Source of the DNA: a virus
Lineage: Duplodnaviria > Heunggongvirae > Uroviricota > Caudoviricetes
Strand: one strand, 5' to 3'
Virus record (IMG/VR): IMGVR_UViG_2585427777_000009
Span: 1-5,591 of that record
DNA: 5,591 bases
Shown here: positions 1 to 5,591 of the stretch, one piece after another
How positions within the stretch are numbered: the stretch's first letter is position 1
How the letters are laid out: the number at the start of each line of letters is the position of its first letter
The notes under the pieces: generated by a model
What the model saw: the letters and a program-made list of their open reading frames with translations, nothing else
The model's database searches: none
What the model was told of the DNA's origin: nothing
Program-made: the position numbers and the translations under genes

Positions 1-17
1 ACCTTGGTTTAAGAGAA
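1..17. other. Left crossover site in inverted orientation, truncated by the window start (central TT at positions 4-5)
   Basis: Positions 1-17 (ACCTTGGTTTAAGAGAA) are the exact reverse complement of 5114-5130. The outer 9 bp of the site would lie left of the window. Confidence 0.65.
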
Positions 18-148
18 CTCGGTACCAGCGGTGAAAAGATCCCCCTGTTGAGTACGGCTAACACATGGAGTGCGCGCCAGACTTTCAACGGCGGGATCAC
101 CGGGGCGCTGACAGGGAACGCCGACACCGCGACGAAATTAAAAACAGC
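1..148. repeat. Left arm of the segment-flanking inverted repeat (pairs with 4983-5130)
   Basis: Hand-aligned reverse complement of 4983-5130 matches 1-148 with 3 mismatches (positions 53, 107, 140), all third-codon-position synonymous changes. Similarity drops to protein level only beyond 148. Confidence 0.9.
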
Positions 149-2237
149 CATAAACATTAATGGCGTCAGGTTCGATGGTTCGGCTGACATTACGTTGACT
201 CCTAAAGATCTGGACGTTTACAGCAAAAGCGAAATAGACAATAAAAAAGGGATGAGAAAATACACTTTTTCAGCGCCTGCAAATGCAGTAAGCGGTAAGT
301 GGTATCCTATAGTCTTTCGCCGATCTAGAGGCAGTACCGATGAATTAGCCTCACGAGTTGTGATAACTACTTATTCCTCAGCTGGCGGATACGCCATGAA
401 TAATTGTGAATTTAATGGTTTTGTTATGCCTGGCGGTTGGTCTGATCGCGGTTCATATGCGGCTGGTTTTTTCTCAATATATTCTACTGCTGAGCGAGCT
501 ATACACTCGATTATTTCAAGTGTGAAAGATGACGATTTGTGTAGTGTGTTTTACGTTGAAGCCAGAGCATTTCCTATCAAGATATTTGCTGAGGAGGGCT
601 TGAACGTAATTGTTCCAACTACTGACTATACCGTTGGTCAAGCCACCTATAAGTGGGGGGCCACAGATCCAGTAGCAGAAAGTACAAATACTCAAACCAT
701 TCTGGATTTTAAAAATGGACGTGGTTATTACTGCTCACATCAGTTTGTTTCAAGCCTTTCAGGAAATGCAGCAACAGCAACGAAATTAGCAAGTTCAATA
801 AACATAGGTGGTGTATCCTTTGATGGTTCAGCCGATATAGATTTGCCTGGTGTTAATGCGACTGGTAATCAGAACACCACGGGGAATGCGGCGTCTGCCA
901 CGAAATTACAAACGGCAAGAACCATTGGTGGCGTTTCATTTGATGGCTCCGCCAATATCAACCTGCCGGGCGTGAATATTGCTGGTAGCCAGAACACGAC
1001 TGGTAATGCTGCAACCGCAACGAAACTTCAGACGGCCCGCACAATAGGCGGCGTGTCATTCGATGGTAGTGCCAATATCGACCTGCCAGGTGTGAATAAA
1101 ACAGGTAATCAGAGCACAACCGGTAATGCTGCAACTGCAACAAAACTGCAAACAGCACGCACAATAGGCGGCGTGTCATTCGATGGCTCCGCCAATATCA
1201 ACCTGCCGGGTGTAAACATTGCTGGTAACCAGAACACAACCGGTAATGCAGCGACAGCGACCAAGTTACAAACCGCTAGAACTATAAATGGGGTGTCGTT
1301 TGACGGTTCTAAAAACATTGAGCTAACTCCAAGGTCTATAGGCACGATCAACTCAGCAACAATGTCTTTTAGTGGTGGTGCCGGATGGTTCAAGCTGGCA
1401 ACTGTAACCATGCCACAAGCCAGTTCCGTGGTTTACATAAGCCTGATTGGTGGCGCAGGGTTTAACGTTGGCTCCCCGCAGCAAGCAGGCATCTCTGAGC
1501 TGGTTCTGCGTGCAGGAAATGGGAACCCCAAAGGTATTACTGGTGCATTATGGCGACGGACCTCGGTTGGATTTACTAATTTTGCATGGGTGAATACATC
1601 CGGTGATACCTATGACATTTATGTAGAAATAGGTAATTACGCCACAGGTGTTAATATCCAGTGGGATTATACCAGTAACGCCAGCGTAACGATTCATACA
1701 TCACCAACTTATACAGCGAATAAACCAACAGGCCTGACAGATGGAACTGTATATGTAATTTACAGTTCGCACATTAAACCGACTGCTGCTGATGTTGGGG
1801 CGTTATCATTATCTGGAGGTCAATTGAATGGTGCACTGGGCATCGGTACATCCAGTGCTCTTGGCGGTAACTCGATTGTTTTGGGTGATAATGACACGGG
1901 CTTTAAACAAAATGGCGACGGTAATCTGGATGTTTATGCTAATAACGTCCATGTTATGCGCTTTGTCTCCGGTAGCATTCAAAGTAATAAAACCATAAAT
2001 ATTACGGGGCGTGTTAATCCCTCGGATTACGGTAACTTTGATTCCCGCTATGTGAGAGATGTCAGACTTGGCACACGTGTTGTCCAGACCATGCAGAAAG
2101 GGGTGATGTATGAGAAAGCAGGGCATGTAATTACAGGGCTTGGTATTGTCGGTGAAGTCGATGGTGATGACCCCGCAGTATTCAGACCAATACAAAAATA
2201 CATCAATGGCACATGGTATAACGTCGCACAGGTGTAG
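1..2237 (+). CDS. Tail fiber protein, alternative variable C-terminal cassette (Sv'-like), silent in this orientation; 5' end is the crossover site and it has no start of its own
   Basis: Frame is open from position 3 ([22 protein letters not shown]...), identical to the minus-strand fiber across the inverted repeat. The TTG at 48 used by the ORF track is not a real start. Contains repeated [32 protein letters not shown] fiber-shaft motifs and a C-terminal [26 protein letters not shown]...NGTWYNVAQV module shared with the other fiber. Stop TAG at 2235-2237, followed 3 nt later by a tfa gene. Confidence 0.85.
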   Translation, partial: LGLRELGTSGEKIPLLSTANTWSARQTFNGGITGALTGNADTATKLKTAININGVRFDGSADITLTPKDLDVYSKSEIDNKKGMRKYTFSAPANAVSGKWYPIVFRRSRGSTDELASRVVITTYSSAGGYAMNNCEFNGFVMPGGWSDRGSYAAGFFSIYSTAERAIHSIISSVKDDDLCSVFYVEARAFPIKIFAEEGLNVIVPTTDYTVGQATYKWGATDPVAESTNTQTILDFKNGRGYYCSHQFVSSLSGNAATATKLASSINIGGVSFDGSADIDLPGVNATGNQNTTGNAASATKLQTARTIGGVSFDGSANINLPGVNIAGSQNTTGNAATATKLQTARTIGGVSFDGSANIDLPGVNKTGNQSTTGNAATATKLQTARTIGGVSFDGSANINLPGVNIAGNQNTTGNAATATKLQTARTINGVSFDGSKNIELTPRSIGTINSATMSFSGGAGWFKLATVTMPQASSVVYISLIGGAGFNVGSPQQAGISELVLRAGNGNPKGITGALWRRTSVGFTNFAWVNTSGDTYDIYVEIGNYATGVNIQWDYTSNASVTIHTSPTYTANKPTGLTDGTVYVIYSSHIKPTAADVGALSLSGGQLNGALGIGTSSALGGNSIVLGDNDTGFKQNGDGNLDVYANNVHVMRFVSGSIQSNKTINITGRVNPSDYGNFDSRYVRDVRLGTRVVQTMQKGVMYEKAGHVITGLGIVGEVDGDDPAVFRPIQKYINGTWYNVAQV
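762..1331 (+). repeat. Tandem 120-bp in-frame coding repeats (40-aa phage fiber-shaft repeat), about 4.75 copies
   Basis: Units at 762-881, 882-1001, 1002-1121, 1122-1241 and a partial unit 1242-1331. Each encodes [40 protein letters not shown]. Exact nucleotide runs of about 30 bp recur between units (e.g. cgcacaataggcggcgtgtcattcgatgg at about 1037 and 1157). Confidence 0.9.
2040..2237 (+). repeat. Internal diverged inverted repeat: conserved fiber C-terminal module (pairs with 3332-3529)
   Basis: The last ~65 codons of the two fibers are about 85% identical at nucleotide level by eye and about 90% at protein level (DSRYVRD(V/I)[18 protein letters not shown]...NGTWYNV(A/S)QV). Confidence 0.8.
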
Positions 2238-2240
2238 TTT

Positions 2241-2768
2241 ATGCAGCATTTAAAAAATATTACTGCGGGTAATCCAAAAACTGTTGCCCAGTATCAACTG
2301 ACAAAAAATTTTGATGTTATCTGGTTATGGTCCGAAGAGGGAAAAAACTGGTATGAGGAAGTAAGTAATTTTCAGGAAGACACGATAAAGATTGTTTACG
2401 ATGAAAATAATATTATTGTCGCCATCACCAGAGATGCTTCAACGCTTAACCCTGAAGGTTTTAGCGTTGTCGAGGTTCCTGATATTACTGCCAACCGACG
2501 TGCTGATGACTCAGGTAAATGGATGTTTAAGGATGGTGCCGTGATTAAGCGGATTTATACGGCAGACGAACAGCAGCAACTGGCAGAATCACAAAAGGCA
2601 ACTTTGCTTTCCGAAGCCGAATCCGTGATTTTGCCGCTGGAGCGCGCTGTCAGGCTGAATATGGCAACAGATGAGGAACGCAGCCGACTGGAAGCATGGG
2701 AACGCTACAGCGTTCTTGTAAGCCGCGTGGATACGGCAAAGCCAGAATGGCCACAAAAACCTGAGTAA
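2241..2768 (+). CDS. Tail fiber assembly chaperone (Tfa; Mu U / lambda Tfa family), partner of the plus-strand fiber cassette
   Basis: 175-aa ORF starting at ATG 2241, 3 nt after the fiber stop. N-terminus [41 protein letters not shown] with internal [18 protein letters not shown] and C-terminal PEWPQKPE are recalled from memory as typical of enterobacterial phage Tfa proteins. N-terminal ~105 aa are ~75% identical to the minus-strand paralog. Stop TAA at 2766-2768 is followed by a hairpin terminator. Confidence 0.85.
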
Positions 2769-2772
2769 AAAT

Positions 2773-2796
2773 AAGGCCCGATAACGGGCCTTTTCT
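2773..2796. terminator. Bidirectional rho-independent terminator between the convergent tfa genes
   Basis: 8-bp stem (aaggcccg 2773-2780, complementary to cgggcctt 2785-2792) with loop ataa. It is flanked by T-runs on both strands (ttttct on plus; tattttt on minus, from 2764-2772). It lies between the plus tfa stop (2766-2768) and the minus tfa stop (2796-2798). Confidence 0.6.
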
Positions 2797-3329
2797 CATT
2801 CTGGTTGTTCGGGAAACGTTACTGGCAGGCTGGAGGTGTCTGTAGATTCGACTTTCTGCGCATAGAGCATCCACTCGGTTAATTTTTGTTTATTCTCGTC
2901 GGAAATGATGCCCAGCCGTAGCTGTGAGTCCCATAGCTGGGTTTTATCCCTGACAAGTTGCAACAGGCTTTGCTTTTCATTCTCTGCCTGCTGCCTCTGT
3001 TCCTCCTCGGTATAAGTTCGCTTTATCACTACGCCATCTTTGAACATCCATTTCCCCGAAATATCAGCCCGGCGATTTGCTGTAATATCAGGCAACTCAA
3101 CGACACTTAAACCTTCTGGATTAATTGCCGATACATCTTTATCCATAGCAACAATTATTCCATCTACAGTGTAAGCCAGTTTTATTGTATCTTCCTGAAA
3201 GTTTTTCACTTCCTCATACCAGTTTTTTCCATCTTCGGACCATAACCAGATAACATTAAAATTCTTTGTTAGCTGATATTGTTCAACGGTTTTTGGATTA
3301 CCTGCGACAATGTTTTTTAAATGCTGCAT
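2796..3329 (-). CDS. Tail fiber assembly chaperone (Tfa; Mu U / lambda Tfa family), partner of the minus-strand (expressed) fiber
   Basis: 177-aa ORF. Its ATG (complement of 3327-3329) lies 2 nt after the fiber stop (3332-3334). N-terminal half is a paralog of the plus-strand Tfa ([41 protein letters not shown]); the C-terminal ~70 aa are divergent. Ends in ...PEQPE, with the stop at 2796-2798 abutting the central hairpin. Confidence 0.85.
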
Positions 3330-3331
3330 GA

Positions 3332-3529
3332 TTATACCTGCGATACGTTATACCATGTTCCGTTAATTAACTTTTGTATTGGTCTGAATACTGCCGGATC
3401 ATCGCCATCAACTTCACCGACAATGCCAAGCCCCGTAATTGCATGACCTGATTTCTCATACATCACGCCTTTTTGCATAGTCTGAACAACACGTGTGCCC
3501 AGGCGAATATCTCGTACATAGCGAGAATC
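3332..3529 (-). repeat. Internal diverged inverted repeat: conserved fiber C-terminal module (pairs with 2040-2237)
   Basis: See the partner feature at 2040-2237. Confidence 0.8.
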
Positions 3530-5591
3530 CGATTCAGCTTTGGTATATGCACCAACATCCCCCGCAGAGGGTTTGCGGGTTGTGGTGTAAAACTCTGACC
3601 AGTTAGCTTCAAAGCCATAACCATCACGCGCTGAACGATAAAAGATACCGCCGTTCTTATAATTCACGCGGAACTGTACAGCAGGGCAACTCCCCGCATT
3701 CATATTGAAGTGGAGGATTAATGTCGATGCACCACTGATATCTGCATCATAAACACCGCTATTCCAGTTCCAGCCAACAGCTTTATCATTTGCAACCCTG
3801 CTTCCTGTTTGCCCTAAAGCGAATGCAGGCTGCTGGTTTTTCGTGTTGTAGTCTCGTCGCCAGCCAGGAGCATAAGCATCACCATGATTAATATAAGTGA
3901 ATTGAGCGTTAGTGATGCCGCCTCCGGTGGAAGTGCTTGGTGTTGTTACACGGATGGTCATGGCACCTTTATTGCCCATAACTTCAATAACGCAACCCGC
4001 AAGGTGAATAAGTCCACATCCGGTGTCAGTAATAATTTTATTATTGCCGTATGACCATGAGCATTTACACATCCAGTATGGATGATTGAAGGCCCACTGA
4101 GATTCCAGCCATTCAATAAATTGCGCCGTCGTCCAGTTTCCTGCACCTGTGCTAATAGAGCCATGAAAAGAGCGGCAAGCACCTATTGTTTGCGTAAATT
4201 TATCTTTGTTTGGAATATCTGCGCCGTTCTGGTTTTTCTGTAATGCTCCTGCGGCTAATTCTACAGTTTGCTCAAGATTTAAATCTGCCGCCGTTAGCTC
4301 AATATTTTTAGAACCATCAAACGACACCCCATTTATAGTTCGAGCGGTTTGTAACTTGGTCGCTGTCGCTGCATTACCTGTTGTATTCTGATTGCCAGTG
4401 GCATTAACACCAGGTAAATTAATATTCGCAGTACCATCAAAGCTAACTCCGCCGATAGTTCTTGCCGTCTGTAGTTTTGTAGCGGTCGCTGCATTGCCAG
4501 TTGTATTCTGATTGCCAGTGGCATTCACACCAGGAATGGAGTCCCTTGATGTATAGACCTGCGCCCAATCTGACCATGCAGCATCTGTTGTATCCCTACG
4601 GGAACGAATGAATGCCGGTGCATGTGCGCCACTTGTACCACTCCACCCAATAAGCAACTCTCCCTCACCAGCAGCACTCGCCCCTTTCATATGCAGAACA
4701 TTGCCGAATGATGTTGGGTAACTATTGCTATATGCTTCATACATTTGAATACCAGCAGTACCCTGAGTAGAGCCACTTAACGCCGTTACGGGCCCGCGTG
4801 ATACCAATGTATTAATGTTGATATCGCCTGAGCCATCAAACTTAACACCATTGATGTTTCTCGCCGTCGCAAGTTTTGTCGCGGTAGCAGCATTCCCCGT
4901 GGTGTTCTGGTTACCAGTTGTATTTACACCTGGAAGATTGATATTGGCCGAGCCATCAAATGCCACACCGCCAATAGTGCGTGCTGTTTTCAATTTCGTC
5001 GCGGTGTCGGCGTTCCCTGTCAGTGCCCCGGTGATCCCGCCGTTGAAAGTCTGGCGCGCACTCCATGTGTTAGCCGTGCTCAACAGGGGGATCTTTTCAC
5101 CGCTGGTACCGAGTTCTCTTAAACCAAGGTATTGGATAACGGCCAGTGTGCTTGTTTTAGCCAGAATATCGCGACCGACTGACGTTAAATCAGTCTGCGC
5201 TACCGTATCCTTACCAGTGAAATAAGGCAGTTTGTTTGCACCAGTCGCAAGGGCAGCGAGCGCGGTTAAAGTTGCATCCAGAGGCTGTTTGCCTGCCAGC
5301 GCATTTGTCATTGTTGTCGCAAAGTTCGGGTCATTGCCCAGTGCTGCTGCAAGCTCATTCAGGGTATCAAGAGCTTCAGGTGATGAGCCGACCAATGCAG
5401 AGATAGCAGCTCTTACATAAGCGGTCGTAGCAATCTGCGTGTTATTCGTACCCTGTGCAGCGGTAGGCGCAGTAGGTATTCCCGTTAATGCAGGACTTGC
5501 TAAAGGCGCTTTAAGGGCCAGAGCATTGTTGATAGTTGTGCTGAAATTCGGGTCGTTATTGATCGCAGCCGCTATTTCTTTCAGCGTATCC
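3332..5591 (-). CDS. Tail fiber protein in the expressed orientation: conserved N-terminal region (continues beyond the right window edge) fused in frame to a variable C-terminal cassette; 5' partial
   Basis: The minus-strand frame stays open upstream of the TTG at 5395 chosen by the ORF track, to the window end (my translation of 5396-5461: ...[22 protein letters not shown] then [25 protein letters not shown]), which is a typical phage tail-fiber N-proximal motif. It crosses the crossover site at 5114-5139 in frame. It contains two blocks of fiber-shaft repeats and a Cys/Trp-rich distal domain, and ends ...[65 protein letters not shown]. Confidence 0.9.
4292..4537 (-). repeat. Two tandem 120-bp fiber-shaft repeats in the minus-strand fiber (aa ~287-368)
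   Basis: Direct repeats are visible on the plus strand (gcattacctgttgtattctgattgccagtggcattaacaccagg at about 4370 and gcattgccagttgtattctgattgccagtggcattcacaccagg at about 4490). Translation gives [21 protein letters not shown](G/N)GVSFDG twice. Confidence 0.8.
4808..5017 (-). repeat. First block of fiber-shaft repeats in the minus-strand fiber (about 1.75 units), partly inside the flanking inverted repeat
   Basis: Encodes [40 protein letters not shown] followed by [30 protein letters not shown]. The counterpart motif in the plus-strand module is at about 114-203. Confidence 0.75.
4983..5130. repeat. Right arm of the segment-flanking inverted repeat (pairs with 1-148)
   Basis: See left arm. 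The repeat extends outward into the crossover site (to 5139), whose left-hand counterpart is outside the window. Confidence 0.9.
5114..5139. other. 26-bp DNA-invertase crossover site (hix/gix/cix family), right copy: TTCTCTTAAACC-AA-GGTATTGGATAA
   Basis: Imperfect palindrome of two 12-bp half-sites around a central AA dinucleotide (5126-5127). It closely resembles hixL (TTCTTGAAAACCAAGGTTTTTGATAA) and gixL (TTCCTGTAAACCGAGGTTTTGGATAA) as I recall them. It sits exactly at the outer boundary of the inverted repeat and inside the fiber reading frame. Confidence 0.75.

Follow-up and report, generated by a model that had tools for sequence, protein, structure and literature searches.

The window, that is, the whole stretch of DNA analyzed here, corresponds to a whole draft contig (JOST01000095.1, 5,591 bp) in assembly GCA_000713855.1 of E. 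coli 5-366-08_S4_C1. It is composed of two convergent cassettes, each with a fiber gene and a chaperone gene, that are separated by a hairpin and bracketed on both flanks by inverted repeats (Table 1). The large open reading frames of both arms have tail-fiber PHROG matches, the small ones encode Caudo_TAP chaperones (E values of 7e-35 and 5e-34), and, as in a P1-type C segment, a chaperone gene of the U/U' type lies behind each variable arm and the cassettes face each other, here across a chaperone-to-chaperone gap of 27 nt. The order of variable fiber, tfa, terminator, tfa', and variable fiber' that was proposed in a preliminary description of this DNA is borne out by the ORF calls, the Caudo_TAP matches, and the central hairpin, and the variable parts that it put at about 740 and 600 codons measure 743 and 597. 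The window contains a single sigma-70-like promoter site, compared with 9.7 ± 3.1 in shuffled sequences, and this depletion is consistent with a promoterless silent arm. A scan of the window against Rfam found no RNA families.

Table 1. Features of the window, with positions counted from its first nucleotide.
Feature	Positions	Strand	Evidence or remark
Left crossover site cixL, partial	1..17	-	Core and inner half-site only; exact 17-mer match; same as inner P1 cixL
Left inverted repeat	1..184	.	184 nt, 90% complementary to right repeat; exact runs of 52, 53, and 32 nt
Silent variable fiber arm, 743 codons + stop	6..2237	+	Mosaic; gene callers give 48-2237 from TTG (729 aa)
Tail-fiber assembly chaperone of silent arm, P1 U ortholog, 175 aa	2241..2768	+	Caudo_TAP E 6.6e-35; phrog_136; 92% aa identity to P1 gpU
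Terminator-like hairpin, bidirectional	2773..2792	.	Stem of 8 bp (6 GC); T-rich tails; scored as terminator on both strands
Tail-fiber assembly chaperone of expressed arm, P1 U' ortholog, 177 aa	2796..3329	-	Caudo_TAP E 4.8e-34; 86% aa identity to P1 gpU'
Expressed variable fiber arm, 597 codons + stop, P1 Sv' / Mu S' type	3332..5125	-	End-to-end alignment with P1 Sv'
Right inverted repeat	4947..5130	.	90% complementary to 1-184
Right crossover site cixR, complete 26 bp, TTCTCTTAAACCAAGGTATTGGATAA	5114..5139	+	Identical across annotated 20-nt P1 cixR; half-site match
Fiber constant part Sc, last 155 codons only	5126..5591	-	Gene continues past window end

The outer ends of both inverted repeats are exact copies of the cix half-site of phage P1. 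This 17-nt half-site, TTCTCTTAAACCAAGGT, occurs exactly twice in the window, in inverted orientation at 1-17 and 5114-5130 (chance expectation 0.02), and no further cix-like site was found in the window with either the 17-mer at up to 3 mismatches or the core pattern at 1 mismatch. By homology with the P1 annotation, the crossover points would fall between positions 4 and 5 in cixL and between 5126 and 5127 in cixR. Over their outer 139 nt the repeats are identical at 136 positions, and the left one encodes the first ~60 residues that are common to both variable fiber parts. The earlier proposal of inverted crossover sites around the cassettes therefore holds, with two inverted, P1-identical cix sites, the left one cut by the window edge. 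The description of the switch as complete applies to the invertible DNA only; the window stops short of the invertase, its enhancer, and the outer half of cixL, and this half-site and the cin stop codon would fall just past its start. No invertase gene is present within the window, and the absence of cin is accounted for by the position of the contig end, which, judged from the sibling contig L003 (see below), directly follows the stop codon of cin.

The minus-strand fiber frame is open from 3332 to the window end (752 aa), with the ORF listing beginning only at the TTG at 5395, and is identical at 752/752 residues to a full-length protein of 1,076 aa (P0121). As had been suggested, the minus-strand fiber alone is fused to a constant region: its frame continues into a P1-like Sc with 95.5% amino acid identity to residues 300-454 of P1 S and 91% nucleotide identity to P1, and a check of the right-hand ORF, which had been expected to continue into a fiber constant region, found the P1 S constant part in place. 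The expressed arm itself can be aligned colinearly with P1 Sv' (70% identity) but is longer (597 vs 518 aa), with four 40-aa repeats vs two in P1. Over its last 315 aa it matches the PDB entry 8ju3, titled "Tail fiber protein S, Tail fiber protein S'", with an E value of 4.6e-151.

On the plus strand, the open fiber frame reaches back to position 6 and consists of the common leader, an inserted β-sandwich domain of ~185 aa (about 183-785, roughly aa 60-250 of the arm), fiber repeats, and a tip from about 1320. The repeats comprise five tandem 120-nt units at 759-1358 and one within the inverted repeat at 111-184; the 74-nt cores reported for the tandem repeats end at 1312. The inserted domain has 61% amino acid identity to side fibers of phages 9g and HdSG1, residues 425-729 of the arm are 94% identical to Muvirus vB_YpM_5, a Mu-like Yersinia phage, and resemblance to P1 Sv is limited to the first 64 and last 75 aa. 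Phage vB_YpM_5 was propagated on Yersinia pestis. The database searches recommended earlier thus assign the expressed arm to the P1 Sv'/Mu S' type and the silent arm to a mosaic of 9g-like and vB_YpM_5-like parts, and they place the two Tfa proteins at 92% and 86% amino acid identity to P1 gpU and gpU', respectively. The silent-arm tfa gene starts 4 nt past the fiber stop codon.

Extra inserted domains had been ascribed to both variable modules. For the silent arm this stands, given its non-P1 domain; in the expressed arm, the additions over P1 Sv' amount to two 40-aa repeats. An AlphaFold2 model of the inserted domain (window 183-785), built from a 25-sequence alignment, is a moderate-confidence β sandwich (pLDDT 66, pTM 0.69). 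A Foldseek search of this model against the PDB gave no confident structural neighbor (best E value 0.07), and a homology search with the inserted domain alone returned mostly fragmentary E. coli tail-fiber entries and no functional lead. We speculate, as an unlikely possibility, that the silent arm encodes a fiber with a host range new to P1-like elements, combining a lateral β-sandwich domain (~185 aa) of the kind seen in 9g-type siphovirus side fibers with a Mu-like tip. If the inserted domain were a second, independent receptor-binding site, the flip would exchange a fiber with one receptor for a fiber with two, and the latter, if it exists, might carry transduction by the plasmid-prophage past E. 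coli and Shigella.

In-silico inversion of positions 5..5126 fuses the plus-strand fiber in frame to Sc in an open frame of 898 aa, of which 896 residues are identical to a natural fused protein of 1,148 aa (P0004). Sc lies outside the segment and is in frame with either variable arm, as in P1-type C segments, and the plus-strand module is, as originally proposed, an in-frame silent alternative. Contig L003, a 90-kb sibling, has the same orientation as the window, with 99.875% identity over all 5,591 nt. Contig L004, from another strain, is 99.84% identical over 1-5130 and carries the Sc flank (465/465 identical) at the opposite end, so that its segment is inverted relative to the constant region. 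An arm-specific SNP at position 53 remains with its own arm in L004, which places the exchange inside the outermost 52 nt, where cix lies. Both orientations are thus observed among near-identical loci in a comparison between strains (L003 and L004, at least 99.8% identity), and a census of complete E. coli genomes places the plus-arm junction beside cin in 6-7 records and beside Sc in 5-9 records.

The sibling contigs also extend the view past the window. In L003 the TAA codon of cin directly precedes window position 1, and the encoded Cin has Resolvase and HTH_7 domains and is identical to P1 Cin at 184/186 residues; the sis enhancer is identical to that of P1 at 70/72 positions, and the full 30-nt Cin-binding region of cixL at 30/30. 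P1 genes lie on both sides of the segment in L003 (lydA/B, darA, and hdf on one, R, gp16, and baseplate genes on the other), and a P1 virion and lysis context is visible in L003, L004, and the plasmid matches, beyond the extent of the window itself. The gene called as R is 49 aa in L003 vs 148 aa in L004, and the P1 late promoter LPs was not recognizable upstream of R in the sibling loci. The best matches to the whole window are P1-like plasmids of 87-103 kb, together with P1, P7, D6, and RCS47, where the annotation gives this region as the C segment inverted by Cin. By analogy with L003, Cin probably adjoins this particular copy as well; cin would lie to the left of position 1, with an expected 3' end of ...TCAATCCTAA.

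P1-identical cix sites, the Sc flank, a sibling with Cin, and a flipped sibling together indicate a C segment of the P1 family and no new system. Very probably (about 0.9), the window represents the C segment carried by a phage-plasmid like P1 (genus Punavirus type) and operated as a Cin/cix switch. The preliminary reading as a host-range switch with an invertible fiber is upheld by the P1-identical cix sites, the in-frame fusion both ways, the two orientations across strains, and the P1 Cin of L003, and its comparison with the architecture of Mu G and P1 C is matched by the convergent S-U / U'-S' layout with P1 cix sites. The suggestion of an undescribed variant fails, given that cin-Sv'-U'-U-S is already documented as a hypervariable region of P1-like phage-plasmids (PMC9603915, PMC6906374).

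In the mechanism that we propose, a cassette of 5,122 bp (window 5..5126) would be flipped by the serine invertase Cin between the two inverted cix sites. The fiber gene S would begin outside the segment in Sc and, past cixR, continue into the variable arm that is turned toward it at the time, and the transcript would also take in the chaperone gene of the same arm, as far as the central hairpin; transcription of the fiber operon probably starts outside the segment. The captured orientation is predicted to give a virion with an S'-type fiber (P1 Sv'/Mu S'-like) and a U'-type chaperone. The flipped state would give a U-type chaperone and a mosaic fiber of 1,148 aa, in which Sc is combined with six 40-aa repeats, the 9g-like inserted domain, and a tip resembling that of the Mu-like Yersinia phage. 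We infer that inversion is active in this strain, and homology suggests that the arms differ in receptor specificity, in which case two states would be expected to have two host ranges.

A switch that is frozen or decayed, with cin lost or truncated or the phage-plasmid defective, would leave the element permanently locked in expression of S'. The window lacks cin and its end falls exactly at the site, R is short in L003 relative to L004, and published P1-like plasmids include some with a truncated cin, presumably frozen switches, or a modified C segment (PMC6906374). Nevertheless, both arms, including the silent one of 743 codons, and both chaperones are intact ORFs, the sites are P1-identical, the nearest sibling has an intact Cin and enhancer, and near-identical copies occur in both orientations; we regard a frozen switch as unlikely. 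Orientation differences might also come from homologous, RecA-dependent exchange between the inverted repeats, or between fiber repeats common to the arms, rather than from Cin at cix, and the locus offers substrates for this in the near-perfect inverted repeat of 139 nt and in further inverted pairs of fiber repeats, up to 242 nt long and 70-80% identical. The SNP at 53, however, confines the exchange to the outer 52 nt together with cix (a homologous exchange could still fall inside those 52 nt), and the sibling has an intact Cin of the P1 type along with the enhancer and sites, which leaves the RecA route with very little probability.

Least probable, with next to no weight, is an origin as the G segment (Gin/gix) of a Mu-like prophage or as a p15B-type Min shufflon with multiple crossover sites. 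Positions 1337-4224, an inner stretch of 2.9 kb, are closer to the invertible region of Muvirus vB_YpM_5 (90.6% identity) than to P1 (82%), and the expressed tip matches Mu S'. The flank, however, is P1 Sc and not Mu S, the sites equal P1 cix, the near-full-length matches are all to P1-like plasmids of roughly 90-100 kb, and in the sibling the segment is flanked by P1 genes at either end. A Mu G segment was accordingly rejected on the flank identity and the full-length matches to P1-like plasmids. Plasmid p15B also combines a P1-related fiber operon with a serine invertase of the Din family, and its six crossover sites shuffle several fiber cassettes; this window has two sites and two states, and a p15B-type shufflon was ruled out by the absence of additional cix-like sites in the window.

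The system itself is the textbook Cin/cix switch of P1, and what distinguishes this otherwise ordinary copy is a reshuffled pair of fiber tips. P1-like plasmids spread resistance genes and serve as DNA-delivery vehicles, with a host range set by the fiber arms. The allele pair found here, an S'-type arm with extra shaft repeats and a 9g-like and Mu-like mosaic, is a natural fiber pair that could be tried in existing P1 tail-swap systems, such as a P1 delta(S-cin) packaging strain (bioRxiv 10.1101/2022.07.24.501295).

Among known systems, the P1 C segment has the same crossover-site sequences and the same layout (cin, cixL, Sv', U', U, Sv, cixR, Sc). In P1 the inverted repeats are about 600 nt and perfect, whereas here they are 184 nt at 90%, and the arm in the Sv position departs from that of P1 in its inserted domain and its receptor-binding region, both of non-P1 type, and in having four more 40-aa repeats. 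The Mu G system (Gin/gix; also in D108, SfMu, and Yersinia phage vB_YpM_5) follows the same logic with the same convergent S-U / U'-S' layout, and Mu-type segments are 83-91% identical to the window in nucleotide sequence over the inner 2.9 kb, with an S' structure (8ju3) that the expressed tip matches; unlike in Mu, the constant part and flanks here are those of P1, and the sibling invertase is Cin, not Gin. Other switches of the Din family, such as Salmonella Hin/hix and e14 Pin, have a serine invertase, 26-bp inverted sites, and a Fis-dependent enhancer. The half-site of the window resembles the hix/gix consensus, but Hin flips a promoter and not the 3' end of a gene, and e14 is a chromosomal defective prophage, whereas the setting here is that of a plasmid prophage like P1. 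Mu has a G segment of ~3 kb with 34-bp inverted repeats, and its size had made the window appear remarkable. The proper comparison is the P1 C segment, at 4,256 bp vs 5,122 bp here, and an exceptional size was rejected: in six P1-like loci the cix-to-cix distances range from 4.26 to 6.96 kb, and the 5.1 kb of the window is mid-range.

The window is the whole of contig JOST01000095.1 (5,591 bp) of E. coli 5-366-08_S4_C1, and searches with its full length matched about 2,400 E. coli records, the best matches being 87-103-kb plasmids together with P1, P7, D6, and RCS47; the annotation of those phages gives the matching region as the C segment inverted by Cin. A repeat finder identified two inverted repeat arms that are 90% complementary and differ at only 3 positions in their outer 139 nt; the 17 nt at the outer end of each arm exactly match TTCTCTTAAACCAAGGT, found twice, inverted (0.02 expected by chance). 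The right site is identical to phage P1 across the annotated 20-nt cixR, and the window starts within cixL, its first 14 nt being the inner part of the P1 site. Given the crossover points transferred from the P1 annotation, the invertible DNA is 5,122 bp, in contrast to 4,256 bp in P1. The inverted repeats of P1 are about 600 nt and perfect, whereas those of the window are 184 nt at 90% because its plus-strand arm has replaced the shared N-terminal domain. No further cix-like sites were found in the window, even at three mismatches, and we interpret it as a two-state switch; a p15B-type multi-site system is rejected, there being two cix sites only. Complete as a draft contig, the window has its left end precisely at the outer boundary of the inverted repeat and cix site, which in the near-identical sibling locus L003 is one base past the cin stop codon; the independent draft contig L004, a second such locus, stops at 16340, exactly that boundary of the other repeat. 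Assemblies break at this edge, which could reflect only the repeat or a sequenced culture of mixed orientation.

The ORF listing comprises four genes and starts the minus-strand fibre no earlier than an internal TTG (5395). The two small proteins match the tail-fibre assembly chaperone family Caudo_TAP (E 7e-35 and 5e-34) and phrog_136, and both large proteins match many tail-fibre PHROGs. The chaperone genes are 27 nt apart, and their spacer contains an 8-bp, 6-GC hairpin that is predicted to be a terminator on both strands. Sigma-70-like promoter matches number 1 in the window, versus 9.7 +/- 3.1 in shuffles, and an Rfam scan of the window returned no RNA family. The lowest G+C of the window (0.38-0.39 versus 0.45-0.52 elsewhere) is in the 5' halves of both chaperone genes (2250-2550, 3000-3450), in agreement with a published association of recombination hot spots in P1-like plasmids with low G+C.

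Features of the window
Feature	Position	Strand	Remarks
Inverted repeat arms	1-184 and 4947-5130		
Crossover points	4/5 and 5126/5127		
Plus-strand fibre ORF	48-2237	+	729 aa
Plus-strand chaperone	2241-2768	+	175 aa, directly after the fibre ORF; Caudo_TAP
Hairpin	2773-2792		
Minus-strand chaperone	2796-3329	-	177 aa; Caudo_TAP
Minus-strand fibre	3332 to window end	-	752 aa, frame open throughout
Secondary inverted repeats	759-1358 vs 4293-4534 and 4817-5020		fibre repeats

The minus-strand variable arm (597 codons) crosses cixR into 155 further codons that are 95.5% identical to P1 S residues 300-454, the constant fibre part Sc, and over all 752 residues this frame is identical to the C-terminal region of a full-length protein of 1,076 aa (P0121). 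Inversion of 5..5126 in silico creates a frame that is open for 898 aa, starting at the window end and including the 743 codons of the plus-strand arm; 896 of the 898 residues are identical to a real 1,148-aa protein (P0004). The preliminary description had proposed an invertible fibre switch in which the minus-strand fibre is fused to the constant region and the plus-strand module is an in-frame alternative, with variable parts of about 600 and 740 codons; the P1 cix sites and the in-frame fusion in both states bear this out in substance.

Both states occur naturally among near-identical elements. Sibling locus L003, a 90-kb contig with 99.875% identity over all 5,591 nt, has the orientation of the window and encodes a 186-aa Resolvase and HTH_7 protein whose stop codon, inside cixL, occupies the three bases preceding window position 1. 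This invertase is identical to P1 Cin at 184 of 186 residues, as are the sis enhancer within its gene (70/72) and the cixL region (30/30) to P1; lydA/B, hdf, and darA lie on the left and S, R, gp16, and baseplate genes on the right. In L004, from another strain (99.84% identity over window 1-5130), the Sc flank (465/465 positions identical) is joined to the other end, and the segment is inverted. In L004, the arm-specific SNP of position 53 is still on its own arm; therefore, the exchange that made the two states lies within the outer 52 nt, cix included, as Cin-mediated inversion would predict, and the same SNP argues against recombination deeper in the inverted repeat. A count over complete E. 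coli genomes placed the plus-arm junction beside cin in 6-7 records and beside Sc in 5-9.

Several observations concern the surroundings of the segment. The fibre-attachment gene R is called as 49 aa in L003 (12779-12928) versus 148 aa in L004 (9552-9998), and the short form could be a frameshift, a sequencing error of the assembly, or a mark of a defective element. The P1 late promoter LPs (-22 box AAGTTACTT and TACAAT) is not recognisable upstream of R in L003 or L004, and their gp16-R spacer (9440-9570 in L004) has a GC-rich hairpin, ttcttcccccaaatgcgggggaagaa, instead. E. coli GPEC79-13-647 has both plus-arm junction types in one assembly, cin-side on a 33-kb record (H96, NZ_JBUBJX010000006.1) and Sc-side on a 100-kb record (H110, NZ_JBUBJX010000003.1), which means that the strain carries two P1-like elements or that each orientation was assembled on its own. 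A close relative of this C segment, accompanied by cin, is found in E. coli APEC17 (H2, NZ_CP178203.1, 3536762-3542302) on a chromosome record of 5.2 Mb instead of a plasmid, which suggests integration of a P1-like element or a join made in assembly.

By analogy with P1, Cin, together with Fis on the enhancer, would cut at the cix cores and rotate the segment; only the arm facing Sc would be transcribed and translated, with its own chaperone, transcription would end at the central hairpin, and the two virion types would adsorb to different receptors. The minus-strand chaperone is the P1 U' orthologue (86% aa), and the minus-strand arm aligns end to end with P1 Sv' (70% identity), its 79-residue excess being due to four 40-aa fibre repeats versus two in P1. 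Over its C-terminal 315 residues, the arm matches the PDB entry 8ju3 ('Tail fiber protein S, Tail fiber protein S'', E 4.6e-151). Based on this alignment and match, the captured orientation corresponds to P1 C(-) and would express an S'-type fibre, which in P1 needs O-antigen (bioRxiv 10.1101/2022.07.24.501295; PMC13172314).

Segment size is not unusual, contrary to what had been suggested: measured alike, cix-to-cix distances are 4,264 bp in P1, 4,534 bp in pS51_2, 5,130 bp in the window, L003, and L004, 6,485 bp in the Survcare253 plasmid, and 6,955 bp in ptetA. The 866-bp excess over P1 is accounted for by an extra 209 + 79 codons. The idea of an undescribed variant is likewise not upheld, given that cin-Sv'-U'-U-S is already listed among the eight hypervariable regions described for P1-like phage-plasmids (PMC9603915) and as region of difference RD-3 (PMC6906374). 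We thus regard the window as a P1-family C segment, well known in kind, with a particular mosaic pair of fibre arms.

In the plus-strand cassette, the chaperone is the orthologue of P1 U (92% aa), and what the plus arm shares with P1 Sv is confined to the repeats and to the 64 N-terminal and 75 C-terminal residues. The remainder is a mosaic: residues 54-235 have about 61% identity with the side fibres of the siphoviruses 9g and HdSG1 and are followed by six 40-aa repeat motifs, and residues 425-729 are 94% identical to a fibre of the Mu-like Yersinia phage vB_YpM_5. The 120-nt (40-aa) fibre repeats, six in the plus arm and four in the minus arm, pair up across the arms as numerous secondary inverted repeats of up to 242 nt (70-80% identity). 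Joints with the fibres of other phages fall at these repeats, the classical pattern of tail-fibre mosaicism, and the repeats look like linkers at which recombination exchanges modules. AlphaFold2 modelled the inserted domain as a beta sandwich with moderate confidence (pLDDT 66), and a Foldseek search of the PDB gave no neighbour better than E 0.07. This domain of ~185 aa (window 183-785, plus strand) is 53-92% identical to many E. coli prophage side-fibre fragments, and its GW.DRG..YA.G.F and R.IHSI motifs are invariant in a 25-sequence alignment.
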